Assembly: GCF_044324785.1 (NCBI RefSeq)
Contig: NZ_CP172127.1
Direction: 5' to 3' (one strand)
DNA length: 64,000 nt
Origin: Escherichia coli
Lineage (GTDB): Bacteria > Pseudomonadota > Gammaproteobacteria > Enterobacterales > Enterobacteriaceae
Positions 1 to 17,791 of the stretch are shown piece by piece (position 1 is the first letter of the stretch; each line of letters opens with the position of its first letter). The notes beneath the pieces were generated by a model. That model saw only the letters and a program-made list of their open reading frames with translations, was not told the DNA's origin and ran no database searches. A program made the translations under genes and the position numbers.

Positions 1-405
1 AAATCCACGAATAACACTGGTGCGCATACCCATAGTTTAAGTGGCAGCACGAATGCAGCTGGTAATCACAGCCATAGAGATGGCCGTCGATTTAACCCCA
101 GTGTTTTTAAAGATACTTATCAATATGGTTATACAAGCTCAGGTCAAAATACCTGGGGTGTACAAGGCTCAGTAGGTATGTCTACGGGGTGGTTAGCGAA
201 TACCAGTACAGATGGTAATCATAGCCATTCACTGTCCGGCACAGCAGCATCTGCAGGTGCACACGCGCATACTGTCGGTATTGGTGCTCATACGCACTCC
301 GTTGCGATTGGTTCACATGGACACACCATCACCGTTAACGCTGCTGGTAACGCGGAAAACACCGTCAAAAACATCGCATTTAACTATATTGTGAGGCTTG
401 CATAA
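1..405 (+). CDS. Prophage side tail-fibre protein, C-terminal part (5' end lies outside the window)
   Basis: Frame 1 is open from base 1 to the stop at 403-405. Translation carries repeated G-x-H-x-H-S/T motifs and ends [18 protein letters not shown], typical of lambdoid side tail-fibre C-termini. It is followed directly by a tail-fibre assembly gene. Confidence 0.7.
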
Positions 406-980
406 TGGCATTCAGAATGAGTGAACAACCACGGACCATAAAAATTTATAATCTGCTGGCCGGAACTAATGAATTTATTGGTGAAGGTGACGCATATATT
501 CCGCCTCATACAGGTCTGCCAGCAAACAGTACCGATATTGCACCACCAGATATTCCTGCTGGCTTTGTGGCTGTTTTCAACAGTGATAAGGCATCGTGGC
601 ATCTCGTTGAAGACCATCGGGGTAAAACGGTTTATGACGTAGCGTCAGGGGACGCGTTATTTATTTCTGAACTCGGTCCGTTACCGGAAAATGTTACCTG
701 GTTATCGCCGGAAGGGGAGTTTCAGAAGTGGAACGGCACAGCCTGGGTGAAAGATGCAGAAGCAGAAAAACTGTTCCGGATCCGAGAGGCGGAAGAAACA
801 AAAAACAGCCTGATGCAGGTAGCCAGTGAGCATATTGCGCCACTTCAGGATGCTGTAGATCTGGAAATCGCAACGGAGGAAGAAACCTCATTGCTGGAAG
901 CCTGGAAAAAGTATCGGGTGTTGCTGAACCGTGTTGATACGTCAACTGCACAGGATATTGAATGGCCAGCACTGCCGTAG
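405..980 (+). CDS. tfaQ: Tail-fibre assembly protein (TfaQ/TfaR-like)
   Basis: 191-aa ORF starting [39 protein letters not shown]; its start overlaps the tail-fibre stop, the usual stf-tfa arrangement. Confidence 0.8.
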
Positions 981-1077
981 GGTAAAACATATAAATTCTA
1001 TAATTAGATGTATCTTTCCATTTACGGCAAGGAAGGGGGCTTGGAAGACGTAAAGCATCTCACACCGAGATTATTTT

Positions 1078-1668
1078 TTATATGTCAGGTGTCTGAAGTT
1101 TTGCTTTGGCTCTTAAAATGGTTTGCCGCGAGGTTTTGAATTCCCGGGCAATGGCACTTATACTTACACCTGACTTAATTCGTTCGAATACCACCTGTTT
1201 CTGTTCTTCATTTAACACAGGTGGTCGACCAAAACGTTTCCCTGCGCCGCGGGCTCTTACTATCCCGGAATGAGTGCGTTCAAGTAAAAGGTCTCGTTCA
1301 AATTCAGCGACTGCTGAAATTACGTGCATCATCATTTTTCCTGTTGGACTGGTCAGGTCAATGCCCCCCAATGCTAAGCAATGCACTCTGATACCTGTTT
1401 CGGTCAGTTGTTCCACTGTTTTCCTGATATCCATTGCATTACAACCAAGGCGATCCAGTTTTGTCACAATCAATTGATCACCACATTTCAGGCGAGCAAG
1501 CAACCGGTTAAAACCAGGACGCTCACTGGTTGCTGCTGAGCCGCTAATGTGTTCTTCGATTATTTGCTGAGGTTTGATTTTAAAACCTGCACTTTCGATT
1601 TCCCGGCGTTGATTTTCGATGGTCTGATCCAGCGTTGATATCCGACAGTAAGCAAAAATTCGAGACAT
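1078..1668 (-). CDS. pinQ: Pin-family serine DNA invertase (site-specific recombinase)
   Basis: 196-aa [18 protein letters not shown]...; N-terminal resolvase/invertase catalytic domain plus C-terminal HTH, Hin/Gin/Pin family. Which Pin paralogue it is cannot be decided from sequence alone. Confidence 0.8.
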
Positions 1669-1984
1669 AGTGAGACTCTATACGAAATTGGTGTTCATAT
1701 CATAATGCATCTCAGAAAATAATTTTGATTATTTTTGTGCATATTTGTATGTACACGTTCGAAAATAAACGAATGCGTATGCAACCCCGTAATTTTGGTG
1801 AGACCCAAAATCGATTTTGTGAAAAATGGCTTTAACTCGGTTTGTTTTTCGAGTTCCGGGCGGACTCAAGGAAGAAGAATAGTGTTGCGTGTTATTTTAA
1901 CCAGATTTCAAGTTGTTTGGTCGTGGAAAAGTGGAGCAAAATGTTGTTAAAGTGGAAAAATGATAAAAAAGTAAGTTTATTATA

Positions 1985-2218
1985 TTACATTTTACCATTT
2001 AAATTTTGGTTGTCTTTAAGAACTGATATCGCTGTTTGTAATAATTCTTTGTTATCCAGCCATGATTTTTTCTTTATGTTTCCTTCAATGTAATCAAGCA
2101 ATGTTCTGGTATTGATAGGTCTTCCCTGTTTTGCTACTTCCACTACAGCATCCCCTAGGATAATTCTTACTTCAGGAAGCTGCGCAGGGAACCACTTTAG
2201 GGTGTCTTTTGATTTCAT
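1985..2218 (-). CDS. ydfK: Small prophage protein YdfK/YnaE-like (cold-shock induced)
   Basis: ORF 1985-2251; likely start at the internal Met (MKSKDTLKWFPAQLPEVRIILGDAVVEVAKQG...), about 77 aa. Sits next to the pin gene as in Qin/Rac. Confidence 0.6.
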   Translation of the reverse strand: MKSKDTLKWFPAQLPEVRIILGDAVVEVAKQGRPINTRTLLDYIEGNIKKKSWLDNKELLQTAISVLKDNQNLNGKM

Positions 2219-3003
2219 GAAGATATTCCTTAAAATATTATTGAGTTTCATTGCGATATTGTATGTCTGATTCAGGATATGTTGACTTATACATCGGTTT
2301 TGTCTGGGTTATTGGATATGCCAATCCCTAATTTTATTAGGGCATGACTAAAAATGCTGAATATGATAAGGAGAGAAGTGATTATCAGTATGCTGTTCAT
2401 ATAGCCTCGAATTAGTAATGTGTTATATATGATATAGTTGACAATTTTTATCTTGGGTGTTCTTAAAGTTCGTAGATAAACATTGTCGTTTCAGGTATAC
2501 AGGAATGCTAACAGGTGGCAGCAAAAATCAGGCGGTTTATGGCGCAAGCTGAAGCGGCAACTGCAAACTATCTTATGCAGAGACTCTACACGGATTGGGT
2601 TTAAAAGTATACATAGATAACAGTTTTTATCTGAAAAAGAAAAATATCAAGGTGATATAGCCTATATGCCTTTGATGCGGAGGAATGAATGTGATGGGAG
2701 TGATGTATCTGAATAGTTGAAAAACCGCAGACACGCCTTATGCAAGAACGTGCTGCGGTTGGCTGGTAAATTTTTCGATAGTGTGAGTATTGAATGATTT
2801 CCAGCCGTTCTTGATTTTACGCATAAATCCATGAAAAAACTACTTATCTGTTGGGGAGTTTTTTTGGGGCATATATGGGACAGAAATAGGCCCCAGATAG
2901 ACACTGAGATCGAACTTAGGATGCTTTTTAAAAAATGCAACTATCTGAAAAAACCTAGAAAACGCCAAGGAAACCACAGGATGGGAAAAAACACCTGTGA
3001 ATT

Positions 3004-4287
3004 ATGGATTTCCAGTTATATTCGCTCGGCGCAGCGTTAGTGTTTCATGAAATATTTTTTCCTGAATCATCAACGGCAATGGCGTTAATTCTGGCAATGG
3101 GAACCTACGGTGCAGGTTATGTGGCACGTATTGTCGGAGCATTTATTTTCGGCAAAATGGGCGACAGAATCGGGCGTAAAAAAGTGCTCTTTATTACCAT
3201 CACCATGATGGGGATCTGTACCACCTTAATTGGTGTGCTGCCGACCTATGCACAAATTGGTGTGTTTGCGCCAATTTTGCTGGTGACGCTGCGTATTATT
3301 CAGGGGCTGGGGGCAGGCGCGGAAATTTCCGGTGCCGGCACGATGCTGGCGGAATATGCACCAAAAGGTAAGCGCGGAATTATCTCCTCATTTGTTGCTA
3401 TGGGGACTAACTGCGGAACCTTGAGCGCAACGGCAATCTGGGCCTTTATGTTCTTCATTCTCAGTAAAGAGGAACTGCTGGCGTGGGGATGGCGTATACC
3501 GTTCCTGGCGAGCGTTGTCGTGATGGTCTTTGCTATCTGGTTGCGTATGAATCTGAAAGAAAGCCCGGTCTTTGAGAAGGTTAACGACAGCAACCAACCG
3601 ACAGCAAAACCTGCACCTGCTGGTAGCATGTTCCAGAGCAAATCCTTCTGGCTGGCAACAGGGCTGCGTTTTGGTCAGGCGGGTAACTCAGGTTTAATTC
3701 AGACTTTCCTTGCAGGCTATTTAGTGCAGACGTTATTGTTTAACAAAGCAATTCCAACAGATGCATTGATGATCAGTTCGATTCTCGGCTTTATGACCAT
3801 TCCGTTCCTTGGTTGGTTATCCGATAAAATTGGTCGCCGGATCCCGTATATTATTATGAATACCTCCGCGATTGTGCTGGCATGGCCAATGCTTTCTATC
3901 ATCGTAGATAAAAGCTATGCCCCGAGCACCATTATGGTTGCACTGATTGTGATTCATAACTGTGCGGTGCTGGGATTATTTGCTCTGGAAAACATTACCA
4001 TGGCAGAAATGTTCGGCTGTAAAAACCGCTTTACCCGGATGGCTATTTCTAAAGAAATTGGTGGTCTTATCGCTTCCGGTTTTGGTCCTATCCTGGCGGG
4101 TATTTTCTGCACCATGACGGAATCCTGGTATCCGATCGCCATTATGATCATGGCATATTCAGTGATTGGTTTAATCTCTGCGCTGAAAATGCCAGAGGTG
4201 AAAGACCGTGATTTAAGTGCGCTGGAAGACGCTGCGGAAGATCAACCGCGTGTTGTAAGAGCTGCGCAACCTTCCAGAAGTCTGTAA
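3004..4287 (+). pseudogene. ydfJ: MFS metabolite:H+ symporter YdfJ, apparently 5'-truncated at the prophage junction
   Basis: 427-aa ORF with 12-TM MFS character. It opens directly in a conserved helix (DFQLYSLGAALVFHEIFFP) with an in-frame TGA two codons upstream and no signal or N-terminal segment, consistent with prophage insertion into the 5' end. Confidence 0.55.
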
Positions 4288-4294
4288 ATCCTCC

Positions 4295-4327
4295 ATCCCT
4301 TCTCTTACCGGAGAGGGGATTTTTTAT
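4295..4327 (+). terminator. Rho-independent terminator downstream of ydfJ
   Basis: GC-rich hairpin (cccttctcttaccggagagggga) followed by a T6 run. Confidence 0.6.
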
Positions 4328-4376
4328 TCATATAACAAAACATGCAGCTTGCCATATTTAAATTTAAGGAATTGTT

Positions 4377-5837
4377 ATGGGAAATAATTTGTTATCAGCA
4401 AAAGCGACGCTCCCTGTTTATGATCGTAATAACCTGGCCCCAAGAATTGTTCATTTAGGCTTTGGTGCATTTCACCGTGCGCATCAGGGCGTGTATGCCG
4501 ATATTCTTGCTACGGAACATTTCAGTGACTGGGGATATTATGAGGTCAATTTAATCGGCGGCGAACAGCAAATTGCCGATTTACAACAGCAAGATAATCT
4601 TTATACCGTTGCGGAAATGTCGGCCGATGCGTGGACGGCTCGCGTCGTTGGCGTCGTTAAAAAAGCCTTGCACATACAAATAGATGGCTTAGAAACCGTG
4701 CTGGCCGCGATGTGTGAACCGCAAATCGCGATTGTCTCTCTGACAATCACCGAAAAAGGGTATTTCCACTCTCCGGCGACCGGACAGTTAATGCTCGATC
4801 ACCCGATGGTCGTTGCCGACGTACAAAATCCCCACCAGCCGAAAACTGCAACAGGGGTGATTGTCGAGGCGCTGGCTCGCCGTAAAGCGGCAGGACTTCC
4901 CGCATTTACCGTCATGTCATGTGACAACATGCCAGAAAACGGTCATGTTATGCGTGACGTTGTCACTTCCTACGCGCAAGCTGTTGATGTAAAACTGGCA
5001 CAATGGATCGAAGAAAACGTGACTTTCCCATCAACAATGGTGGACCGTATTGTGCCCGCAGTGACGGAGGATACGCTGGCGAAAATCGAACAACTTACCG
5101 GTGTGCGCGATCCTGCTGGCGTTGCCTGTGAACCTTTCCGCCAGTGGATAATAGAAGATAACTTTGTTGCCGGACGTCCGGAATGGGAAAAAGCGGGAGC
5201 CGAACTGGTTAGTGATGTGCTGCCTTATGAAGAGATGAAGTTGCGCATGCTCAACGGCAGTCATTCATTCCTGGCGTATCTGGGTTATCTTGCCGGATAT
5301 CAGCACATTAATGACTGCATGGAAGATGAACATTATCGTCATGCAGCGTATGCCTTGATGTTGCAAGAACAAGCGCCGACGTTGAAAGTGCAGGGCGTTG
5401 ATTTGCAAGATTACGCTAACCGATTAATTGAACGCTATAGCAACCCGGCGCTACGTCATCGAACCTGGCAGATTGCGATGGATGGCAGCCAGAAATTGCC
5501 ACAGCGGATGTTGGATTCTGTTCGCTGGCATCTGGCGCATGACAGCAAGTTCGATCTGCTGGCTCTGGGCGTCGCAGGTTGGATGCGTTATGTCGGTGGT
5601 GTTGATGAACAGGGAAATCCGATAGAAATCAGTGACCCACTGTTACCTGTTATTCAGAAGGCTGTACAAAGTAGTGCCGAAGGGAAAGCGCGCGTCCAGT
5701 CATTGCTGGCGATTAAGGCGATCTTTGGTGATGATTTGCCAGACAATAGCTTGTTTACTGCAAAAGTGACGGAAGCGTACTTGTCTTTATTAGCGCATGG
5801 TGCGAAAGCGACCGTGGCGAAATATTCCGTGAAGTAA
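4377..5837 (+). CDS. ydfI: Mannitol dehydrogenase-family oxidoreductase (D-mannonate/altronate oxidoreductase-like)
   Basis: 486-aa ORF with an N-terminal Rossmann GFGAFHRAH motif; long-chain mannitol dehydrogenase family. Confidence 0.85.
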
Positions 5838-5844
5838 AAAAAGC

Positions 5845-5866
5845 AATGCCGCCATCGGCGGCATTC
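5845..5866 (-). terminator. Terminator hairpin between convergent ydfI and ydfZ
   Basis: Near-perfect hairpin aatgccgcc-atc-ggcggcatt preceded on the + strand by an A7 run (a T-run for the minus-strand transcript). Confidence 0.5.
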
Positions 5867-5872
5867 ACACGC

Positions 5873-6076
5873 TTAGTTCATGCCGAGACGAATCAGGTCC
5901 AGAGGTGCCAGTTTCTCTTCACAACCTTCAACAACTACGGTTTTTCCGCGGCGGATTTGCTCAGCGGTCAGACCTTCAGTATCAATCGACAGGATCTTGC
6001 CAGTGTGACCGGTGCCGCTAACCATAACACGGCTGCCAGTGGTGATTGCGTTACGGTTACGATCGTAGGTCGTCAT
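5873..6076 (-). CDS. ydfZ: Small conserved protein YdfZ (putative selenium-binding)
   Basis: 67-aa [70 protein letters not shown]. Confidence 0.75.
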
Positions 6077-6252
6077 AGGTGTTTTCTCCTTTCTGATTTA
6101 CAGTCGAAGCCCACGTAACGGGCGCAATATAAATACTCCTGTCGAGTGAAATATTTTTTGTTTTTGATCAAGCTCACATCTTTTTTGATGCATGCATGAG
6201 CCATATGACGGAGGGAAAAACTCTCACCCCGGATGGGATGAGAGGAAATGAA

Positions 6253-6939
6253 TTACTCTTCGCTAAACCAGTCGCTGTTTTCCTGGCGGATCTGGCGCAC
6301 GGATTCGCTGATTTCCTGCAAATGTTGCGTCATTGCACGTTCTACCGCATCGCCATCACGTTTTTGCAGGGCAGAGAAAATCTCAAGATGCTGGCGTAAC
6401 AGCATTTCTGGTGGAGAAACGTGGTCGAAACTCATATAGCGCACGCGATCAACGGTCGCTTTCAGGTTCTCAATGGTATCCCACGCCAGTTGACAGTCGG
6501 CAATCTGGGTCAAGAGTTGATGGAAGTTGTCATCAAGTTCAAAAAAATCATCCAGTTGTTTGCGCTCAATGGCAATGCGTTGCTGATGAAGATTTTGTTC
6601 CAGTTGGTAGCACTGGCTTTCGGTAATCATGCTCGCCGCCCGACGCGCCACCGCGCACTCAATGGCCTGACGGATAAAACTGCCGTTGCGCACCTGGGCC
6701 ATGGAAATTTTGTTGACGTAGCTGCCACGCTGCGGACGAATTTGAATCAGGCCGTTTTCCGCCAGTTTAATAAAGGCTTCACGAACCGGCTGGCGTGACA
6801 CATTGAAACGAACAGAAACTTCTTTTTCCGACAACGGTGTGCCTGGTGCAATCAGGCAATGGACAATGTCGCGACGAAGAATACGATAAATCTGCTGATT
6901 GACAGGCTGTGTGGGATTAAGTTGCGTTTCGACGGTCAT
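6253..6939 (-). CDS. ydfH: GntR/FadR-family transcriptional regulator
   Basis: 228-aa ORF with an N-terminal winged-HTH (GntR) and a FadR-like C-terminal domain. Confidence 0.8.
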
Positions 6940-7027
6940 TCGTTCTTGCTTGTGAGTGAGTTAACTGCATGAGTCTACCACTTTTTTGTGACAAGCAATA
7001 ACCCGGCAGTTACGCCGGGTATAAAAA

Positions 7028-7774
7028 TTACTGACGGTGGACATTCAGTCCGGCATAGCTTTGGGTAACCGGCATCATTTCCAGGGTATTGATATTGACG
7101 TGAGCAGGCAGCGTTGACACCCACCAGACGGCTTCGCTGACATCTTCTGGCGTCAATGCAACGGTATTTTGATAGGTTTTTTCCGCTTTACCGTCATCGC
7201 CTTTAAAGCGGACATTGGAAAACTCGGTGCCACCCACCAGACCCGGCTCGATGTCGGTGACGCGCACCGCCGTACCATGCAGGTCCGTACGCAGATTCAG
7301 GCTAAACTGACGAACAAACGCTTTCGTCGCACCGTAAACGTTACCACCGGCATACGGCCAGCTGCCTGCCGTTGAGCCAATGTTAATAATATGACCATGA
7401 TTACGTTCAACCATACCCGGTAAGACGGCGCGCGTCATATATACCAGGCCTTTGTTGTTGGTATCAATCATCGTTTCCCAGTCTTCAACGCTGGCTTTAT
7501 GCGCAGGCTCCATGCCCAACGCCAGACCGGCATTATTTACCAGGATATCAATATTGCACCACTCGGCAGGAAGCGATGCCAGCATCTCTTCAATAGCGGC
7601 GCGGTTGCGAACGTCCAGTTGGGCGATATAAAGATTATCTCCCAGTTCGTCTTTTAACTCCTGCAACCGCTCCTGGCGACGGCCAGTGGCGATAACTTTA
7701 TGCCCTTGTTGAATAAAACGACGAGTAATGCATTCACCAAAACCTGCCGTTGCTCCAGTTACTAAAACGATCAT
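7028..7774 (-). CDS. ydfG: NADP-dependent 3-hydroxy acid dehydrogenase (SDR family)
   Basis: SDR with a TGATAGFG cofactor motif; likely start at MIVLVTG (248 aa) rather than the ORF-track Met five codons upstream. Confidence 0.85.
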   Translation of the reverse strand: MIVLVTGATAGFGECITRRFIQQGHKVIATGRRQERLQELKDELGDNLYIAQLDVRNRAAIEEMLASLPAEWCNIDILVNNAGLALGMEPAHKASVEDWETMIDTNNKGLVYMTRAVLPGMVERNHGHIINIGSTAGSWPYAGGNVYGATKAFVRQFSLNLRTDLHGTAVRVTDIEPGLVGGTEFSNVRFKGDDGKAEKTYQNTVALTPEDVSEAVWWVSTLPAHVNINTLEMMPVTQSYAGLNVHRQ

Positions 7775-7910
7775 CTCACTGTTCCTCAACGCTTTTGTGT
7801 GTCAATAACATAGCACGTGATGCTTAAGAGCGGGTAATACTGGTTTGCAAGATTGCACTCCGTTATCAGTAAGCCTACGCTATGGAACACCTCGCGTTCA
7901 GGAGAAGAAA

Positions 7911-9956
7911 ATGACAACAATGAATCCTTTCCTTGTGCAAAGCACACTGCCGTATCTGGCTCCCCATTTTGATCAAATTTCCAATCATCACTATCGCCCG
8001 GCATTCGATGAGGGAATGCAGCAAAAGCGGGCAGAAATTGCTGCCATCGCGCTTAATCCGCAAACGCCTGATTTCAACAATACTATTCTGGCACTGGAAC
8101 AAAGCGGAGAATTACTTACCCGCGTTACCAGCGTCTTTTTTGCGATGACTGCGGCGCATACTAATGATGAATTACAGCGTCTTGATGAACAGTTTTCCGC
8201 TGAACTGGCGGAACTGGCTAATGATATCTATCTGAACGGTGAATTATTCGCGCGGGTAGATGCTGTCTGGCAACGCCGTGAATCCCTGGGACTTGATAGT
8301 GAATCCATCCGCCTGGTGGAGGTCATTCATCAACGTTTTGTCCTTGCCGGAGCCAAACTTGCACAAGCTGATAAAGCAAAATTAAAAGTACTGAATACAG
8401 AAGCTGCGACCCTGACCAGCCAGTTTAACCAGCGGTTACTGGCAGCAAATAAATCCGGCGGTCTGGTTGTGAACGATATCGCGCAGCTGGCAGGAATGAG
8501 TGAGCAAGAGATTGCGCTGGCGGCAGAGGCGGCTCGCGAGAAAGGTCTGGATAACAAATGGCTGATTCCGTTGCTGAATACCACCCAGCAACCAGCGCTT
8601 GCTGAACTGCGCGATCGCGCGACGCGTGAAAAACTGTTCACTGCGGGCTGGACGCGAGCGGAAAAAAATGATGCCAATGATACCCGCGCTATCATTCAAC
8701 GTCTGGTGGAGATCCGCGCGCAGCAGGCGAAACTGCTTGGTTTCCCTCATTATGCCGCATGGAAAATCGCCGATCAGATGGCAAAAACGCCAGAAGCAGC
8801 ACTCAACTTTATGCGGGAAATTGTTCCAGCGGCGCGTCAACGTGCGAGCGATGAATTAGCCTCCATACAGGCGGTTATCGATAAGCAGCAGGGCGGGTTT
8901 AGCGCGCAGCCGTGGGACTGGGCATTTTATGCCGAGCAGGTAAGACGTGAGAAATTCGATCTCGATGAAGCGCAGCTCAAGCCTTATTTCGAATTAAACA
9001 CGGTGTTGAATGAAGGCGTATTCTGGACTGCGAATCAGCTCTTCGGTATTAAGTTTGTCGAACGTTTTGATATTCCTGTCTACCATCCTGACGTTCGGGT
9101 GTGGGAAATTTTTGATCATAATGGCGTGGGGCTGGCGTTATTTTACGGTGATTTCTTCGCCCGTGATTCAAAAAGCGGCGGTGCATGGATGGGCAATTTT
9201 GTTGAGCAATCAACGCTGAATGAAACGCATCCGGTAATTTATAACGTCTGCAATTATCAGAAACCCGCTGCCGGTGAGCCTGCGTTGTTACTCTGGGATG
9301 ATGTCATAACCTTATTCCATGAATTTGGTCATACGCTGCACGGCCTTTTTGCCCGCCAGCGTTATGCCACGCTTTCCGGCACCAACACGCCGCGTGATTT
9401 TGTCGAATTTCCGTCGCAAATCAACGAACACTGGGCAACGCATCCGCAGGTATTCGCTCGCTATGCCCGGCATTATCAGAGCGGGGCAGCAATGCCTGAC
9501 GAACTGCAACAGAAAATGCGTAATGCCAGCCTGTTCAACAAAGGGTATGAGATGAGCGAACTGCTTAGCGCCGCACTTCTCGATATGCGCTGGCATTGCC
9601 TGGAAGAAAACGAAGCAATGCAGGATGTCGATGATTTCGAATTGCGGGCGCTGGTGGCGGAAAATATGGATCTTCCTGCTATACCGCCACGCTATCGCAG
9701 CAGTTATTTCGCCCATATTTTTGGTGGCGGATATGCCGCAGGTTATTACGCTTATCTGTGGACGCAAATGTTGGCCGATGATGGTTATCAGTGGTTTGTT
9801 GAGCAGGGCGGATTAACGCGTGAAAATGGGCTGCGTTTTCGCGAGGCGATCCTTTCCAGAGGTAACAGCGAAGATCTGGAACGCCTGTATCGACAATGGC
9901 GCGGTAAGGCACCTCAGATTATGCCGATGCTGCAACATCGTGGCTTGAACGTATAA
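7911..9956 (+). CDS. dcp: Dipeptidyl carboxypeptidase II (M3 zinc metallopeptidase)
   Basis: 681 aa from MTTMNPFLVQSTLPYLAPHF, with an AGGAGA ribosome-binding site at 7900-7905; HEFGH zinc motif present. Confidence 0.9.
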   Translation: MTTMNPFLVQSTLPYLAPHFDQISNHHYRPAFDEGMQQKRAEIAAIALNPQTPDFNNTILALEQSGELLTRVTSVFFAMTAAHTNDELQRLDEQFSAELAELANDIYLNGELFARVDAVWQRRESLGLDSESIRLVEVIHQRFVLAGAKLAQADKAKLKVLNTEAATLTSQFNQRLLAANKSGGLVVNDIAQLAGMSEQEIALAAEAAREKGLDNKWLIPLLNTTQQPALAELRDRATREKLFTAGWTRAEKNDANDTRAIIQRLVEIRAQQAKLLGFPHYAAWKIADQMAKTPEAALNFMREIVPAARQRASDELASIQAVIDKQQGGFSAQPWDWAFYAEQVRREKFDLDEAQLKPYFELNTVLNEGVFWTANQLFGIKFVERFDIPVYHPDVRVWEIFDHNGVGLALFYGDFFARDSKSGGAWMGNFVEQSTLNETHPVIYNVCNYQKPAAGEPALLLWDDVITLFHEFGHTLHGLFARQRYATLSGTNTPRDFVEFPSQINEHWATHPQVFARYARHYQSGAAMPDELQQKMRNASLFNKGYEMSELLSAALLDMRWHCLEENEAMQDVDDFELRALVAENMDLPAIPPRYRSSYFAHIFGGGYAAGYYAYLWTQMLADDGYQWFVEQGGLTRENGLRFREAILSRGNSEDLERLYRQWRGKAPQIMPMLQHRGLNV

Positions 9957-9967
9957 ACACCACCAAT

Positions 9968-9997
9968 GGCTGGCCTGGAGAAATCGCCAGGCCAGCC
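9968..9997. terminator. Perfect hairpin between dcp and the CinA-like remnant (possible bidirectional terminator)
   Basis: ggctggcctgg-agaaatcg-ccaggccagcc inverted repeat; no strong T-run on either side, so strength is uncertain. Confidence 0.4.
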
Positions 9998-10000
9998 TGG

Positions 10001-10099
10001 TTAGAGTAGTAATTGCAGCAGCTGGGCGAGGGCAAACCTCACCGCTAATGCTAATACCGTTTCGCAGTCGCCAGCAAAATTACTTTTTTTGTATACCCT
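10001..10099 (-). pseudogene. ydeJ: CinA-like (competence/damage-inducible C-terminal domain) ORF remnant, possibly a truncated ydeJ
   Basis: Minus-strand frame ending ...SNFAGDCETVLALAVRFALAQLLQLLL*, which resembles CinA-family C-termini. No start codon and no conserved CinA N-terminal motif within the roughly 320 bp available before ydeI. Confidence 0.3.
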
Positions 10100-10320
10100 T
10101 CCGTTATAATAATTTTCAAATTTATAAATCTGATTGTTCTGAAATATGTTTAAGACTCTTTAATCTTCTTCTTACTTTAGTGAGTAAAATTCTCTGAATA
10201 TTTGACAGTTAGTTGCCTGATTTTAAATGCCTTATAACAATTGGCAGTATTCTTATTTGTCAATTATAAAAATAGCAACCAGACTTAATAAGTCAAACCA
10301 AACGCAATTAAGGAGTCAGT

Positions 10321-10713
10321 ATGAAATTTCAGGCCATTGTATTAGCAAGTTTTCTTGTCATGCCTTATGCGTTGGCAGATGACCAGGGCGGATTAAAACA
10401 GGATGCAGCGCCACCGCCGCCTCATGCAATAGAAGATGGCTATCGTGGAACCGATGATGCAAAAAAAATGACCGTTGATTTCGCAAAAACCATGCACGAT
10501 GGCGCTTCGGTTTCACTACGCGGTAATTTGATTTCTCACAAAGGAGAAGACCGTTACGTTTTTCGCGATAAGAGCGGAGAAATTAATGTTGTTATTCCTG
10601 CGGCGGTCTTTGATGGACGAGAAGTTCAGCCGGACCAGATGATCAACATTAGCGGTAGTCTGGATAAGAAAAGCGCGCCGGCCGTCGTTCGGGTCACTCA
10701 TTTGCAGAAATAA
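10321..10713 (+). CDS. ydeI: Periplasmic OB-fold (BOF/YgiW family) stress protein
   Basis: 130-aa ORF with a signal peptide [19 protein letters not shown] and a BOF-family C-terminal region. Confidence 0.8.
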
Positions 10714-10967
10714 AAATAAATTAGCCTGATGGCCTGAACTACTGGGCCATTAGGGTATTGGGTTATGCTATTTGTCATCCTTTTATTTACGATAATGCAG
10801 AGGTAATTTACAGAATTAAACACTTTATTATCCGCTGATTTTGTTTTAAATCACAATGTTATCTCAGAGATGACTCATAACTTCGGATTTCTATGAAAAT
10901 ATTGACGTAATTTTGCTTTTCTCTCGTTAGAATAGCGCGCACAAGGAACTGTGAAAAAGGAGTTGCA

Positions 10968-11858
10968 ATGATCAAGAAGACAACGGAAATTGATGCCATC
11001 TTGTTAAATCTCAATAAGGCTATCGATGCCCACTACCAGTGGCTGGTAAGTATGTTTCACAGCGTAGTCGCGAGAGATGCCAGTAAGCCAGAAATAACGG
11101 ATAACCATTCTTATGGACTGTGCCAGTTTGGTCGGTGGATTGATCATCTGGGGCCACTCGATAACGATGAATTACCTTACGTTCGGCTAATGGATTCTGC
11201 CCATCAACATATGCATAACTGTGGTCGGGAATTAATGTTGGCTATTATTGAAAATCACTGGCAGGACGCGCATTTCGACGCCTTTCAGGAAGGGTTGCTT
11301 TCTTTTACTGCGGCATTAACCGATTACAAAATTTATTTGCTGACGATCCGTAGCAATATGGATGTTTTGACGGGATTGCCGGGTCGTCGGGTTCTTGATG
11401 AATCCTTTGATCATCAGTTACGCAACGCTGAGCCTCTGAATCTTTATTTAATGTTGTTGGATATTGACCGATTTAAATTGGTTAATGATACCTACGGGCA
11501 TTTAATCGGCGATGTAGTATTACGCACCCTGGCAACTTACTTAGCCAGTTGGACGCGCGATTACGAAACGGTTTATCGCTACGGTGGCGAAGAATTTATC
11601 ATTATTGTCAAAGCGGCTAATGATGAAGAAGCATGTCGTGCAGGTATCAGAATTTGCCAGTTAGTCGATAACCATGCCATCACACATTCTGAAGGGCATA
11701 TCAACATTACCGTGACTGCAGGTGTGAGTCGCGCATTTCCTGAAGAGCCTCTGGATGTGGTCATTGGAAGAGCGGACCGGGCAATGTATGAGGGTAAGCA
11801 AACCGGAAGAAATCGCTGTATGTTTATTGACGAACAAAATGTGATTAACCGAGTTTAA
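10968..11858 (+). CDS. dgcZ: Zinc-regulated diguanylate cyclase (CZB + GGDEF)
   Basis: 296-aa ORF MIKKTTEIDAILLNLNKAIDAHYQWL...; CZB zinc-binding domain and a GGEEF active-site motif (YRYGGEEFIIIV). Confidence 0.9.
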   Translation: MIKKTTEIDAILLNLNKAIDAHYQWLVSMFHSVVARDASKPEITDNHSYGLCQFGRWIDHLGPLDNDELPYVRLMDSAHQHMHNCGRELMLAIIENHWQDAHFDAFQEGLLSFTAALTDYKIYLLTIRSNMDVLTGLPGRRVLDESFDHQLRNAEPLNLYLMLLDIDRFKLVNDTYGHLIGDVVLRTLATYLASWTRDYETVYRYGGEEFIIIVKAANDEEACRAGIRICQLVDNHAITHSEGHINITVTAGVSRAFPEEPLDVVIGRADRAMYEGKQTGRNRCMFIDEQNVINRV

Positions 11859-11902
11859 GCTCCGTTTAACATTCATTGAGAAAACTGATGCTACTGTGTC
11901 AA

Positions 11903-12001
11903 CGATCCGTTATCAGTGCAGGAAAATGCCTGTTAGCGTAAAAGCAAAACACAAATCTATCCATGCAAGCATTCACCGCCGGTTTACTGGCGGTTTTTTT
12001 T
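11903..12001 (+). ncRNA. mgrR: Candidate small RNA in the dgcZ-mgtS intergenic region (position expected for MgrR); boundaries approximate
   Basis: Non-coding stretch ending in a strong intrinsic terminator (caccgccgg-ttta-ctggcggt followed by T8 at 11993-12001). Location divergent from mgtS matches the known mgrR locus. The 5' end is not determined. Confidence 0.45.
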
Positions 12002-12007
12002 CGCCGT

Positions 12008-12049
12008 CATAAAAATCAGGCCCCTTGTACACAACTGTAACAAGGGGCC
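12008..12049 (-). terminator. Terminator hairpin for mgtS
   Basis: ggccccttgtacacaactgtaacaaggggcc hairpin with a flanking A-run on the + strand (T-run for the minus transcript). Confidence 0.5.
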
Positions 12050-12076
12050 GGTTAGGTGAGGGATTATCTCCGTTCA

Positions 12077-12172
12077 TTAGTCATCCCATTTGTGGCTGAA
12101 ATACGCGGCCAGAAAACCAGAAAATAAAATTATTCCCAGTACGGCCATAAAAACATTCATATTACCCAGCAT
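12077..12172 (-). CDS. mgtS: Small inner-membrane protein MgtS (YneM), 31 aa
   Basis: Hand translation of the minus strand gives MLGNMNVFMAVLGIILFSGFLAAYFSHKWDD*. It is below the ORF-track size cutoff; single TM helix. Confidence 0.8.
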   Translation of the reverse strand: MLGNMNVFMAVLGIILFSGFLAAYFSHKWDD

Positions 12173-12298
12173 TATTTGCCTCCGTTTATGGTGTGGTGTG
12201 TTTCCTCGCTTACCTTAATTTTCATCTCAATGAGAAAGATATTAGCAGAGGTAACCTAAACGAAGGCTGAATTAAATTTTTATTGTGTTCGACTTAAA

Positions 12299-13486
12299 TC
12301 AACAAAGCGCGGGCTGCCCCCACGGTCTTGCACGAATTCCTTTTAACATCAGCACCCACGCAGCAATGATCACCAACGCTAAGATGATAAACAGCGAGGA
12401 AGGCGGCAGGTTGGTTAGCACTATGCCACTCACTAATGGGTTAATCGCCGCACCAAGCCAGCCTAAAGACTGAGCGGAAAAATAGCTGGCTTTCATTCCT
12501 GGCGGCGCAATATGGTCAATCAACATATACTCGCCCGGCGCATAAATGATTTCACCGACAGTAAATACCGCAGCTGACATACCCCACAATAGCAGGCTGT
12601 TGCCGGAAAAAATAAAACCGACCAGACCGATGACGAAACAGAGGGTGCCTGCTGTCATCAGCGTGCGGATGTTAGCCGGGTTAAGTCGCCGGCCCACGGA
12701 ATATTGCAACGTAACCACCATGGCAGCATTCACCGGAAGAACAACCGCGACCACCTTTTCGGCAAAATCCCCATCAGCAATCACCATCACATATTGTGAA
12801 ATGCATGAAGCAAATGCGCCGCTAACAAAAGAAGCCAGAAAGCCAGAGCAGGTAAACCACAACAGTGCTTTATCTTGTAATAAAACTTTCGGCGACCAGG
12901 CACTGGCTGTTTCCGTGGCGATGATTTTCTCGCTGCGCTTTACCCAAATTTGAATGAAAAGCATGGGAAACGCGGAACAGATAGCTGCCAGCCAAAAGGG
13001 CAGATTGATGCTCTGCATCACCAACAGCGTGCCGAGCGGCGGACCGATGGTCCAGCCAATGTTTAGCATGGTGTAGTTGATTGAGAAGATTTTCGTTTTG
13101 CTGGTGGAGGAAAGATTGTCGGCAAACCAGGCTTTCAACACGGTAGCAAAAACGGAATAGGCGCAGTTAATAAGGGCAAAAAAGAGTACCACCAGCGTCA
13201 CGTTATTCACTAAAGGAATGGCAATAAAACCGCTGGCGAAGGCGGTAATTGCCAGTAACATATAGCGTTTCTTGTCGAACTTATCCGCCAGGATACCAAA
13301 ACCGAGGCTAAAAACGACGCCAATAGTGAGCGCAATTGTCATCGCATAACCGATTAGATCGACACTCAGGCTGTACTGGCGACTCAAGTAAATGGTCATA
13401 AACGGCAGCGTAGCGCCGCGTCCGATGGTTAATAACAACGACGAGGCAAGAAGGGCGCTGGTAGAGCGTCGTAGGGATAAGTTCAT
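12299..13486 (-). CDS. ydeE: MFS efflux transporter
   Basis: 395-aa ORF, 12 predicted TM segments, MFS-type. Confidence 0.8.
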   Translation of the reverse strand: MNLSLRRSTSALLASSLLLTIGRGATLPFMTIYLSRQYSLSVDLIGYAMTIALTIGVVFSLGFGILADKFDKKRYMLLAITAFASGFIAIPLVNNVTLVVLFFALINCAYSVFATVLKAWFADNLSSTSKTKIFSINYTMLNIGWTIGPPLGTLLVMQSINLPFWLAAICSAFPMLFIQIWVKRSEKIIATETASAWSPKVLLQDKALLWFTCSGFLASFVSGAFASCISQYVMVIADGDFAEKVVAVVLPVNAAMVVTLQYSVGRRLNPANIRTLMTAGTLCFVIGLVGFIFSGNSLLLWGMSAAVFTVGEIIYAPGEYMLIDHIAPPGMKASYFSAQSLGWLGAAINPLVSGIVLTNLPPSSLFIILALVIIAAWVLMLKGIRARPWGQPALC

Positions 13487-13680
13487 TTGTCTGTCCGGCA
13501 GTGCGTTTCGTTATGTTTTGTTTTAGAGATGTAAAGAAATAGCATGGCAAAAATCCGAAGTATAGCGACTTATTTGCGCTTTAATGCCGTCGTAATCGGC
13601 GACTAACGAATCAACTGTTAAAGAAAAGTAAATTCAGCTAAGTTGATTGCTTACAAAAGATGAAATTCAGAGGCGGTAGA

Positions 13681-14580
13681 ATGTCGCGAAAAGATGGGGT
13701 GTTGGCGCTACTGGTAGTGGTCGTATGGGGGCTGAATTTTGTGGTCATCAAAGTGGGACTTCATAACATGCCACCGCTGATGCTGGCCGGTTTGCGCTTT
13801 ATGCTGGTCGCTTTTCCGGCCATCTTTTTTGTCGCACGACCGAAAGTACCACTGAATTTGCTGCTGGGGTATGGATTAACCATCAGTTTTGCGCAGTTTG
13901 CCTTTCTGTTTTGCGCCATTAACTTTGGTATGCCTGCTGGACTGGCCTCGCTGGTGTTACAGGCACAGGCGTTTTTTACTATCGTACTTGGCGCATTTAC
14001 TTTCGGTGAGCGGCTGCATGGCAAACAATTGGCGGGGATTGCCTTAGCGATTTTTGGCGTACTGGTGTTAATCGAAGATAGTCTGAATGGTCAGCATGTG
14101 GCGATGCTCGGCTTTATGTTGACCCTGGCGGCAGCATTTAATTGGGCGTGTGGCAACATCTTCAATAAAAAGATCATGTCGCACTCAACGCGTCCGGCGG
14201 TGATGTCGCTGGTAATCTGGAGCGCATTAATCCCAATCATTCCCTTCTTTGTTGCCTCGCTGATTCTCGATGGTTCCGCAACCATGATTCACAGTCTGGT
14301 CACTATCGATATGACCACCATCTTGTCTCTGATGTATCTGGCGTTTGTGGCGACAATTGTTGGTTATGGGATCTGGGGGACGTTACTGGGACGCTATGAA
14401 ACCTGGCGGGTTGCACCGTTATCGTTACTGGTGCCCGTAGTAGGACTGGCAAGTGCGGCACTATTGCTGGATGAACGCTTAACGGGTCTGCAATTTTTCG
14501 GTGCGGTGCTCATTATGACCGGGCTGTATATCAATGTATTTGGCTTGCGGTGGCGTAAAGCGGTAAAGGTGGGAAGTTAA
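13681..14580 (+). CDS. eamA: Cysteine/O-acetylserine exporter (DMT superfamily)
   Basis: 299 aa from MSRKDGVLALLVVVVWGLNFVVIKVGL; two EamA-domain repeats. Confidence 0.85.
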   Translation: MSRKDGVLALLVVVVWGLNFVVIKVGLHNMPPLMLAGLRFMLVAFPAIFFVARPKVPLNLLLGYGLTISFAQFAFLFCAINFGMPAGLASLVLQAQAFFTIVLGAFTFGERLHGKQLAGIALAIFGVLVLIEDSLNGQHVAMLGFMLTLAAAFNWACGNIFNKKIMSHSTRPAVMSLVIWSALIPIIPFFVASLILDGSATMIHSLVTIDMTTILSLMYLAFVATIVGYGIWGTLLGRYETWRVAPLSLLVPVVGLASAALLLDERLTGLQFFGAVLIMTGLYINVFGLRWRKAVKVGS

Positions 14581-14610
14581 TAAGCCCCGAGATGTCGGGG
14601 CCAGAACAAA

Positions 14611-14829
14611 CTACATAGCGTGTTGATTATAATAGGGCACGCCGAGCGCATCCGACTTATCACTGCCAGTACCCATGTGATTTAAATCAAACGGTGGTTG
14701 TTCCTGCGATGGGGGAACAACCACGACATTGGCACAGGAAGTAACAACCGGCTGCGTGGTTTGTTCCGCAATGCCCTGCGTGGAAAAGAGAATAAGCGCA
14801 GCTGCTATTGCGGATAAAAGTGGTTTCAT
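14611..14829 (-). CDS. marB: Periplasmic protein MarB
   Basis: 72-aa ORF MKPLLSAIAAALILFSTQGIAEQTT..., immediately downstream of marA. Confidence 0.85.
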   Translation of the reverse strand: MKPLLSAIAAALILFSTQGIAEQTTQPVVTSCANVVVVPPSQEQPPFDLNHMGTGSDKSDALGVPYYNQHAM

Positions 14830-14860
14830 GATTGCCTCAGTGACGTTGTCACGTTATCAA

Positions 14861-15244
14861 CTAGCTGTTGTAATGATTTAATGGATGTAAAAAGCGCGAT
14901 TCGCCCTGCATATTGGTCATCCGGTATTTATGCGGCGGAACATCAAAGTAATTTTTGAAGGTTCGGGTCAGAGTTTGTTGCGACTCGAAGCCATATCGTT
15001 CTGCCAGATAGAGTATCGGCTCGTTACTTTCCTTCAGCTTTTGCGCGATTTCCGTCATCTTACGGCTGCGGATGTATTGGCCTAATGAATGACCGGTTTC
15101 TTTTTTAAACATCCGTTGCAGGTGCCATTTGGAGTAACCCGAACGCTCTGACACTTTCTCCAGTGACAGTGGCGATTCCAGGTTGTCCTCGATCCAGTCC
15201 AAAATGCTATGAATGGTAATAGCGTCAGTATTGCGTCTGGACAT
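14861..15244 (-). CDS. marA: AraC/XylS-family activator MarA
   Basis: [51 protein letters not shown]...; 127 aa with the double HTH. Confidence 0.9.
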
Positions 15245-15264
15245 CGTCATACCTCTTTTTTTGT

Positions 15265-15699
15265 TTACGGCAGGACTTTCTTAAGCAAATGCTCAAGTGT
15301 TGCCACTTCGTCCGCCGTCAGGTTTTTTGTTAATTCTTGGTGCAGGTCCTGGCCAACTAATTGATGGCATTGTTCACATATTGCCGCGCCGCTGGTGGTA
15401 AGTTTTACCAGTACGCCGCGCTTATCATTCGGGTTCGGCAACCTTTCCACCCAGCCTTTACAGACCAGGCGATCCAGCATACGGGTCAGTGCTCCCAGGT
15501 CGACCGACAATACCTTTTTCAGTTCAACCGGAGTAATACACGCCGCGCAGCGGATAGAGCAGAGCACCTTAAACTGTGCCGCGGTAATATCCAGCGGAGA
15601 CAGATACTCGTTAAGCAGGCGATCTTTCTTCTGATTAACCATATGGATTAAGCGACCCAATGGAATAATTTCATTGAACAGATCGCTGGTACTTTTCAC
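15265..15699 (-). CDS. marR: MarR repressor of the multiple-antibiotic-resistance operon
   Basis: 144-aa winged-helix MarR-family ORF heading the marRAB operon. Confidence 0.9.
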
Positions 15700-15910
15700 A
15701 TTAGTTGCCCTGGCAAGTAATTAGTTGCAGAGGATAATATTGCCCAGGCAAGTATAAGTCAAATGAATGAATTGACCGATGCCACGTTTTGCTAAATCGG
15801 TTCAAGTTTTGGTCAATGCGATGCAAGGTTAGCTAAAGAGTGACACTTTATCCTTGTTTACCCCTTATACTTTTCGCTGATAACCCAGATACACAGGATA
15901 ACAACCACCA
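15700..15910. promoter_or_regulatory. marO: divergent marRAB / marC promoter-operator region
   Basis: 211-bp intergenic region between divergent marR and marC; the known location of MarR operators and the marbox. Individual sites were not mapped here. Confidence 0.6.
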
Positions 15911-16576
15911 ATGTTAGATTTGTTTAAAGCAATTGGCCTGGGGCTGGTGGTGTTACTACCGTTAGCTAACCCATTAACAACTGTCGCGTTATTTCTTGGC
16001 CTGGCAGGCAACATGAACAGTGCCGAACGTAATCGTCAGTCGTTGATGGCCTCGGTGTACGTCTTTGCCATCATGATGGTGGCGTATTACGCCGGGCAAC
16101 TGGTGATGGATACATTTGGCATTTCGATTCCCGGTCTGCGAATTGCAGGCGGCTTAATCGTCGCGTTTATCGGTTTTCGGATGCTCTTTCCGCAACAGAA
16201 AGCAATTGATTCACCGGAAGCGAAAAGCAAGTCGGAAGAGCTGGAAGATGAACCCAGTGCCAATATTGCTTTTGTACCACTGGCAATGCCTAGTACCGCC
16301 GGACCGGGAACCATTGCGATGATTATTAGCTCGGCGTCCACTGTGCGTCAGAGTTCAACCTTCGCTGATTGGGTACTGATGGCTGCGCCGCCGCTGATCT
16401 TTTTCCTGGTGGCGGTTATTTTGTGGGGAAGTCTACGCAGCTCTGGCGCAATTATGCGGCTGGTGGGCAAGGGGGGAATTGAAGCGATCTCCCGCCTGAT
16501 GGGATTCCTGCTGGTATGTATGGGCGTGCAGTTTATTATTAACGGCATCCTGGAAATCATTAAAACGTACCATTAA
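15911..16576 (+). CDS. marC: Inner-membrane protein MarC (UPF0056 family)
   Basis: 221-aa multi-TM ORF divergent from marR. Confidence 0.85.
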
Positions 16577-16598
16577 AAAAGGCCCGAATGGGCCTTTC
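16575..16598. terminator. Bidirectional terminator between marC and ydeA
   Basis: aaaaaaggcccgaatgggcctttc: short GC stem flanked by an A-run and a T-run. Confidence 0.6.
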
Positions 16599-16600
16599 AA

Positions 16601-17791
16601 CTATTGCGTCTGTTCTTCGAGTGTCACTGGCCAGCGGCGAAAAATGATGATTGACCATATTAACGCGGCAAAAGCAGGCACCGCGCCCACATAACCAATC
16701 ATCGACATTGACCAGTGCAGACTGACCTGATTACCTACCAACGCGCCAGCGCCGATTCCAATATTAAATATCCCCGAGAATAGCGCCATCGCGACATCGG
16801 TGGCATCTGGTGCCAGCGCCAGCACTTTAACCTGCATACCAAGCCCGATGATCATCATCGCGATCCCCCAGAAAATACTTAGCACCCCGAGGTGTATTTC
16901 ACTGTTCGCCGCAGGTAGCAGCAGTGCGAGGCACACCAGCAACAGCGCAATCGCCGTACTCACCAACGCAGACGCATACTGATTACCCAGTTTCCCGAAA
17001 ATCACGCTGCCAATAATGCCCGCACCACCGAGTAATAACAGTAATGCCGTGGCAAAGTTGGCGCTGAATCCCGCAATGTTTTGCACAAAAGGCTCGATAT
17101 AGCTGTATGCCGTGTAATGGGCGGTGACAACCACCACAGTTAACAAATAAATGCTCATTAATGCCGGGCGGCGGAACAATAGCGGGAGGCTTTTCAATGA
17201 ACCGGAATGCTCACTGGGCAGCAAGGGAAGTAACTTAATCAGGCACAAAAGGGTAATAAACGCCCCGATACCAATCGCGAAGAAGGTCATTCGCCAGCCA
17301 AAATACTGCCCCACAATGCGCCCGAGAGGTAAACCTAATACCATTGCCAGTGCTGTACCGGTGGCAATTAAACTCAACGCCTGCGCTCGCTTCCCGGCCG
17401 GAGCCATACGGATCGCCAGAGACGCCGTAATCGACCAGAAAATCGCATGTGCAAAAGCCACACCAATGCGACTGATCACCAGAACGGTAAAGCTCCACGA
17501 CAAAAACGACAGTACGTGGCTGGCAATAAACACCACAAACAGGCAGATCAGTAATTTGCGTCGTTCAACCTGGCTGGTCATTAACATAAAAGGCAATGAC
17601 ATTAGCGCCACTACCCATGCATAAATCGTCAACATGATGCCGACCTGAGCGGTTTGCATGTGAAAACTTTGCGCAATGTCAGAGAGCAGGCCAACAGGGA
17701 CAAATTCGGTGGTGTTGAAGATGAAGGCGGCGACTGCCAGCGTAACGACCCGTAGCCACGCCACTTTGCGGGAAACAGTGTTTGTTGTCAT
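16601..17791 (-). CDS. ydeA: MFS sugar efflux transporter (SotB/YdeA)
   Basis: 396-aa MFS ORF. Confidence 0.8.

Follow-up and report, generated by a model that had tools for sequence, protein, structure and literature searches.

At the right end of a prophage in Escherichia coli, a gene for a small serine recombinase lies beside the genes for a tail-fiber tip and its assembly chaperone, a neighborhood that raises the question of whether the locus is a host-range inversion switch, frozen or working, or something else. The locus occupies positions 1–4287 of a 64,000-nucleotide stretch of contig NZ_CP172127.1 (assembly GCF_044324785.1), referred to here as the window, and comprises the end of the side tail-fiber gene stf, followed by tfaQ, the recombinase gene pinQ, ydfK, ynfT and a truncated chromosomal gene, ydfJ'. 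An initial annotation of this DNA had proposed a tail-fiber switch, perhaps frozen, abutting a probable prophage–chromosome junction. Our reading, in which we place considerable confidence, retains the junction and discards the switch: the attR end of a Qin-family prophage has split ydfJ, no inversion switch is present, and PinQ is an orphan recombinase of a plasmid resolvase-like clade, with a vestigial res site, a lost catalytic Arg and relaxed constraint.

Window positions 1–3012 are the attR end of a Qin-family lambdoid prophage, a feature already known and a textbook E. coli annotation; the corresponding end in K-12 is annotated as "cryptic prophage Qin". K-12 Qin shares the integration site, the att core and the right-end gene order (stfQ, tfaQ, pinQ, ydfK, ynfT, ydfJ'), and is 98.3% identical to the window over 209–3100. 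However, the K-12 prophage is heavily deleted, its stfQ being a 963-bp remnant fused beside nohA, and positions 1–219 of the window instead match, without a mismatch, the stf gene of strain IAI1, whose prophage is more complete and whose stf is full-length at 2961 bp; the same holds for the stf end as a whole (1–405). The RefSeq annotation of IAI1 describes a near-complete lambdoid prophage running from terminase to J, then lom, the 2961-bp stf, tfaQ, pinQ, ydfK, ynfT, and a ydfJ labeled "missing N-terminus". Among a set of 5426 complete E. coli genomes, 1912 carry at least 80% of window positions 1–4500 in one place.

Comparison of the K-12 attL and attR sequences with a reconstructed attB defines an 11-bp att core, TTATGGATTTC, common to all three sites and located at 3002–3012. 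In the orientation of the window, K-12 attL reads ...CTTGAATTTATGGATTTC followed by AAGAGT, K-12 attR reads ...CTGTGAATTATGGATTTC followed by CAGTTA, and the boundary of Qin in K-12 corresponds to window position 3012. The initial annotation had put the prophage–chromosome junction near 2995–3005, within about 10 bp of this core. When the chromosomal flanks are joined, the reconstructed attB is matched at 100%, as a single piece, in 2007 of the 5426 genomes, and ydfJ at the unoccupied site is an uninterrupted gene of 1368 bp encoding 455 residues; the K-12 and RefSeq annotations place the same boundary.

In the window, ydfJ' (3004–4287, plus strand) encodes an MHS-family transporter of the major facilitator superfamily (MFS) that lacks its first 28 codons, leaving 427 of 455 residues. 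Its ATG (3004–3006) lies inside the att core and is the internal Met29 of the intact protein, and an in-frame TGA (2998–3000) stands two codons before it. The abrupt start and nearby stop had been recognized from the outset, and the gene does not naturally begin at this Met, intact ydfJ starting 28 codons earlier. The Pfam MFS_1 profile aligns to intact YdfJ starting at residue 21, which matches profile position 2, and to the clipped open reading frame (ORF) only from position 33, so that positions 2–32 are lost; this shift places the cut inside the first MFS transmembrane segment, in line with the MFS helix named in the initial annotation. Profile coordinates were used for this purpose because the first transmembrane segment of YdfJ could not be resolved from Kyte–Doolittle hydropathy and no solved homolog of YdfJ was found.

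The junction is visible independently in the pattern of divergence. Between the window and IAI1 there are no mismatches over positions 1–3090, followed by about 20 per kb (about 2%) over 3091–17,778, and this rise past the att site implies that the DNA flanking the core has two different histories. For the chromosomal part alone (3013–9000), the best match in the set reaches no more than 99.4% identity, so the source strain is not among the 5426 genomes.

The 239 positions between the shared prophage genes and the core, 2763–3001, occur only in phages that integrate in ydfJ and are absent from Rac and from phage Turner; they are therefore most simply an attP-derived arm. This arm contains a repeat at 2851–2858 (as TTGGGGA) and 2865–2871 (TGGGGCA), and the attL arm of K-12 has two copies of TGGGGCA, at 59 and 70 nt from the core, making these repeats candidate arm-type binding sites of the Qin-type integrase. 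A lambda-type tyrosine integrase would recombine attP with the 11-bp core inside ydfJ codons 27–31. After integration, ydfJ codons 1–29 would lie at the opposite prophage end, where they are found as ynfP in K-12, and the near end would retain a 427-codon ydfJ' that starts at Met29 and has lost part of its first MFS transmembrane segment. The K-12 ynfP gene (24,729–24,839 of the K-12 locus, at attL) consists of the first 29 ydfJ codons, of which 28 are those missing from ydfJ', and seven prophage-derived codons. YnfP, a small protein that has been detected experimentally, is a by-product of integration.

The pinQ gene (1078–1668, minus strand) encodes a small serine recombinase of 196 residues (Pfam Resolvase, E = 2.5e-36; HTH_7, E = 3.8e-11) and is convergent with tfaQ. 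The positive control for the crossover sites that a switch would require was the P segment of e14 in K-12, which lies between inverted AAACCTTGGTTTGGGAGAAGG-type sites separated by 1797 bp. A search with the AAACCNNGGTTT core pattern found no site in the stf–tfa–pin region of either the window or the IAI1 locus. A 26-mer scan with the pix site of e14 itself reached at best 15 of 26 positions in this region, which is no higher than in shuffled sequence, while recovering the e14 sites at 26 and 21. Inverted and direct repeats were also sought from stf to attR in IAI1 and throughout the 48-kb Turner genome, but none of the inverted pairs near pin was credible. The strongest local candidate (109–126 and 1000–1017; 18 nt at 78%) was dismissed as chance. 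There is no second stf/tfa cassette: a single stf tip and a single tfa are followed by pinQ, ydfK and ynfT, and on this point the initial annotation was right.

The e14 system, whose recombinase PinE belongs to the Din family with Gin, Cin, and Hin, resembles the present locus in having a small serine recombinase gene beside tail-fiber and tfa genes. In e14, however, two opposed stf/tfa cassettes are enclosed by inverted sites whose core is AAACC-NN-GGTTT, and pinE lies beyond the segment and is directed away from it, whereas the window has neither the sites nor the second cassette and pinQ runs convergently toward tfa. The proteins themselves are also distant. PinQ is 38% identical to PinE, with C-terminal DNA-binding regions that align poorly, and 36–39% identical to Cin and to invertases of Mu-like or P2-like phages; members of the Din family are about 60–70% identical to one another.

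The arrangement in the window is not peculiar to this strain. Eleven isolated temperate phages encode a PinQ that is at least 98% identical, and the one of these that was inspected, Turner, has the same stf–tfa–pin–ydfK–ynfT order. In a sister lineage at 84% identity, pin is likewise convergent with tfa and stf. Recurrence of the layout in Turner, in Rac and in this sister lineage identifies it as a stable property of the lineage, and not as a switch that has decayed in one strain. Published BLAST surveys, which report inversions in e14 only and none in Qin or Rac (PMC12529663), agree with the absence of a local switch. We conclude that there is no DNA-inversion switch at this locus, and no sign of a past one. 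A more distant PinQ homolog, in Erwinia phage LS-2018a (60% identity), likewise has no invertible segment in its context.

The closest relatives of PinQ point to a different origin. Protein searches return a large family at 76–85% identity to PinQ, and a tblastn search with one of its members gives matches on 1671 plasmids, mostly of Klebsiella and E. coli and including IncF and IncI types. The upstream regions of two plasmid copies can be aligned with that of pinQ and are homologous to it over about 130 bp. Five TGTCCGAAA half-sites, none with more than one mismatch, occur in this region of the plasmid copies: two form a dimer site of 26 bp (−115 to −90), two a dimer site of 32 bp (−75 to −44), and the fifth stands alone at −21. 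The γδ-like tnpR gene of a plasmid, taken for comparison, has res I, II, and III at −119 to −92, −69 to −36, and −30 to −6, with half-sites such as TGTCCGATA and CGTACGAAA. The positions of the sites in the plasmid copies match those of γδ res I–III, and the architecture is thus essentially the same. It suggests that the family carried by the 1671 plasmids may be a widespread system of plasmid multimer resolution, annotated merely as "recombinase family protein". In plasmids pRM9088-2 and pRM10386-2 (4886–4957 in each locus), the γδ-like three-subsite res with half-site TGTCCGAAA is apparently undescribed.

Upstream of pinQ itself, alignment to the plasmid homologs and half-site scans delimit a putative vestigial res-like and promoter region (1679–1764, minus strand). 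Three half-sites are left (1756–1764, 1710–1718, and 1679–1687), each matching TGTCCGAAA at seven of nine positions; their partner arms are gone, and the equivalent of site I is interrupted by a 20-bp insertion. Dimer-type sites are absent from the whole 64 kb of the window, from the 44-kb IAI1 locus, and from both the Turner genome and the e14 end. Set against the Tn3/γδ resolvases and their res sites, the plasmid relatives of PinQ are alike in having a 26-bp, a 32-bp, and a third site within 115 bp upstream, and in the motifs shared by the catalytic domains. The locus in the window differs from these systems in its degenerate sites, in the split of site I by 20 bp, in the replacement of Arg71 by Cys, and in having no transposase and no second res. 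PinQ looks like the recombinase of a resolvase–res unit whose res has decayed, and not like a Din invertase.

The replaced residue is Cys76 of PinQ, in the motif KLDRLGCN. In alignments with Gin, γδ, Tn3, and PinE it corresponds to the Arg of KLDRLGR, which is Arg71 of the Tn3 and γδ resolvases. Codon 76 (window positions 1441–1443, minus strand) is TGT, as opposed to CGT in the plasmid relatives. The remainder of the catalytic set is kept as Tyr7, Arg9, Ser11, Glu39, and Arg73, where the Tn3 reference has Tyr6, Arg8, Ser10, Asp36, Arg68, and Arg71. In Tn3 resolvase, the substitutions R71A and R71K abolish resolution in vivo and slow cleavage about 1000-fold (PMC2794168). Among the 120 closest cluster representatives, position 76 is Arg in 112 and Cys in five, and the five Cys76 clusters are PinQ/PinR and the 84% sister lineage; the homolog of Erwinia phage LS-2018a has Arg. 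No discussion of Cys76 was found in PMC12529663 or elsewhere in the searched literature that names pin invertase genes.

An Arg76 allele was observed in a prophage remnant of E. coli GCA_910593615.1 (locus positions 4840–5591), in a ynaE–pin–tfa context in which tfa is split by an IS66 element. In this genome the pin ORF and the proximal 70 bp upstream of it are of the plasmid type and the distal upstream sequence is of the phage type, a mixture that indicates gene conversion from a plasmid copy to the prophage.

Rates of change also set the phage and plasmid copies apart. Relative to two outgroups, 19 amino-acid changes fall on the PinQ branch and four on the plasmid branch. For pin, the ratio of nonsynonymous to synonymous substitution rates (dN/dS) is 0.39 when the two Cys76 lineages are compared, against 0.08 for the adjacent tfa at similar dS; between plasmid copies of the recombinase it is 0.026. 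The other catalytic residues are conserved across the 84% sister lineage. These values indicate that constraint on a recombinase without a substrate in cis is relaxed, though not absent. Without such a substrate, any activity of PinQ must be either non-catalytic or exerted in trans, the latter being what has been reported for the e14 P segment.

Several points weigh against this account of PinQ and of the prophage end. The function of the plasmid sites as res is read from their architecture, and can be put forward as probable on that footing. PinQ scores slightly higher with Gin (106 bits) than with γδ resolvase (84 bits), so that the description "resolvase-like" depends on the res architecture of the plasmid relatives and not on the protein alone. 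A dN/dS of 0.39, below 1, together with the retained catalytic residues, means that some function is under selection, and the results reported in PMC12529663 are such that PinQ may be catalytically active despite Cys76. As to the integration site, the window includes neither the attL end nor the integrase of this prophage, and both were examined in K-12 only.

What PinQ does at present can be read in several ways, of which the first follows directly from published work. Kirigo et al. (NAR 2025, PMC12529663) reported that over-production of PinQ increases the inverted fraction of the e14 P segment from about 30% to 88% and confers protection against phage T2, and that survival of T2 infection is lower when pinQ is deleted. 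PinQ would then be a fully active invertase acting in trans on the e14 pix sites, and a regulator of anti-phage defense. This reading is possible, though we do not favor it. It accounts for the 88% of inverted P segments under over-production, for the inversion carried by survivors of T2 infection and for the requirement of the effect for stfP/stfE and e14 (PMC12529663). Native PinQ and PinR, however, produce no inversion without PinE, which makes a role of either as the dominant invertase hard to reconcile with the data. The Cys at the Arg71 position speaks against it too, as does the half-site of the plasmid relatives, TGTCCGAAA, which is unlike the pix sequence TTCTCCCAAACC, and as do the poorly aligning DNA-binding regions of PinQ and PinE. 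The proposed target, e14, would lie elsewhere in the chromosome, if the source genome carries it.

In our judgment it is about equally possible that PinQ and PinR are catalytically crippled descendants of a plasmid resolvase that have been kept for a non-catalytic role. Their effect on e14 would be indirect and exerted via PinE, for instance through mixed tetramers or through occupancy of sites. The grounds for this are the Cys at the Arg71 position, the vestigial res with its split site I, and the relaxed selection.

Less probable is that PinQ has lost recombination and been repurposed as a putative DNA-binding regulator, which might, for example, repress its own gene or act on ydfK and ynfT. 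The residual half-sites overlap a promoter-like sequence upstream of pinQ (TGTACA-16-AATAAT, 1755–1728), the plasmid relatives share its helix-turn-helix recognition region, and the dN/dS below 1 would fit such a role. The 164 bp upstream differ at about four positions between the Cys76 lineages and are far better conserved than synonymous sites of the ORF (dS 0.22), but recent recombination alone could have produced this conservation, and the half-sites match at only seven of nine positions and lack partner arms.

Finally, a frozen host-range switch, in which the module would derive from an invertible segment of Mu/P1/e14 type that has lost its alternative cassette and one site and left the invertase idle, is very improbable: the recombinase gene does directly adjoin the fiber tip and chaperone, such adjacency in e14 accompanies a working 1.8-kb inversion, and the best solved-structure match of PinQ is Gin, but not one pix/gix-like site is left in the stf–tfa–pin region, the gene orientation and the PinE comparison are wrong for such a descent, the closest relatives, recombinases of plasmids, have a res of the resolvase type, and the layout is found again in Rac, in an isolated phage and in the diverged 84% sister lineage.

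Comparison by blastn with Rac, K-12 Qin, and phage Turner delimits a cassette at 220–2762 that contains the stf tip, tfa, pin, ydfK, ynfT, and an upstream hairpin. The cassette is 98–99% identical among Qin-type prophages, Rac, and Turner, while both of its flanks differ. Its left edge falls within stf, between His-x-His repeats, and its right edge coincides with a minus-strand hairpin (2718–2760), the alignment with Turner diverging after about 2763. Positions 220 and 2762 were considered as recombinase sites, but by eye they show no likeness to each other or to known sites and were taken to be ordinary mosaic joints. The right end of Rac (stfR–tfaR–pinR–ynaE–ynaM), whose PinR differs from PinQ by two residues, and phage Turner share the cassette but have other integrases and other att sites (ttcA for Rac), and they show no relation to the window in the upstream part of stf or in the last 190–250 bp ahead of the junction. 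Different lambdoid phages swap the cassette as one unit, which in the window is followed by an attP arm of 250 bp.

The genes of the right end itself lie where the initial annotation had placed them: the fiber end with its GxHxH repeats, tfa, the convergent serine recombinase and ydfK. The 3' end of stf, which encodes the receptor-binding tip of the side tail fiber (1–405, plus strand; IAI1 type; Pfam PF03335, Phage_fiber), comprises 134 codons and a stop, frame 1 being open over 1–402 up to a TAA at 403–405, and its C-terminus carries six GxHxH motifs (GAHTH, GNHSH, GNHSH, GAHAH, GAHTH, and GSHGH). The tail-fiber assembly chaperone gene tfaQ (405–980, plus strand), so annotated in IAI1 and K-12, encodes 191 residues (Pfam Caudo_TAP, E = 3e-44). 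The stf–tfa module of lambda is alike in its position after J and lom, in the His-x-His repeats of the fiber tip, and in the Caudo_TAP chaperone gene directly downstream; to our knowledge, no recombinase gene, ydfK, or ynfT follows tfa in lambda. A full-length match to the Rfam family IS009 (748–946, plus strand; 226.7 bits, cut-off 117) is wholly inside tfaQ. This small RNA family may simply have captured conserved tfa coding DNA.

Beyond pinQ, ydfK (1985–2218, minus strand; 77 residues, in an ORF that reaches 2251) is annotated in RefSeq as "cold shock protein YdfK" and is a paralog of ynaE in Rac. A published information-theory scan (PMC2189734) predicted a Fur-site cluster of 17 bits whose center is at +8 relative to the start codon of ydfK/ynaE, which corresponds to window positions of about 2210–2250. 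At the level of equivalogs, an NCBIfam scan found no family for PinQ, YdfK, or TfaQ. The small gene ynfT (2287–2400, minus strand), annotated in K-12 and IAI1, encodes a hydrophobic protein of 37 residues in the YnaM/YnfT family, with scores well above the cut-offs of both family models (Pfam PF23676, E = 6.5e-28, 96.2 bits, cut-off 27; NCBIfam NF041477, 63.9 bits, cut-off 35). A protein identical in sequence to YnfT has been detected by chromosomal epitope tagging (PMC6001520). The G+C fraction falls to 0.32–0.40 over about 1650–3000, compared with 0.44–0.53 in the flanks. The initial annotation, which described 2252–3003 as AT-rich and without a confident gene, was thus correct as to composition and missed ynfT; between ynfT and ydfJ' there are about 600 bp without annotated genes. 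Within this interval, the hairpin at 2718–2760 (minus strand) is terminator-like and followed by UUUUU. It folds at −20.7 kcal/mol (z = −4.26), none of 200 shuffled sequences being equally stable; because it is bulged, it was missed by a simple terminator scan and detected by direct folding. An Rfam scan of 1650–3050 gave no match above threshold and no cspA-type thermosensor upstream of ydfK or ynfT, and the hairpin is the cause of a sub-threshold match to CssrB (25 bits, cut-off 76).

Two sets of results may be useful. The first is an att core defined to the base, with the junction confirmed independently by the step in divergence, together with the movement of fiber tip, chaperone, pinQ, ydfK, and ynfT between lambdoid phages as one 2.5-kb cassette. 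The second is Cys76 and the vestigial res, a modest new lead that touches a recently published mechanism. PinQ and PinR have lately been promoted as the first recombinase-based anti-phage system, and the mechanism proposed for it would need revision if the present findings hold experimentally.

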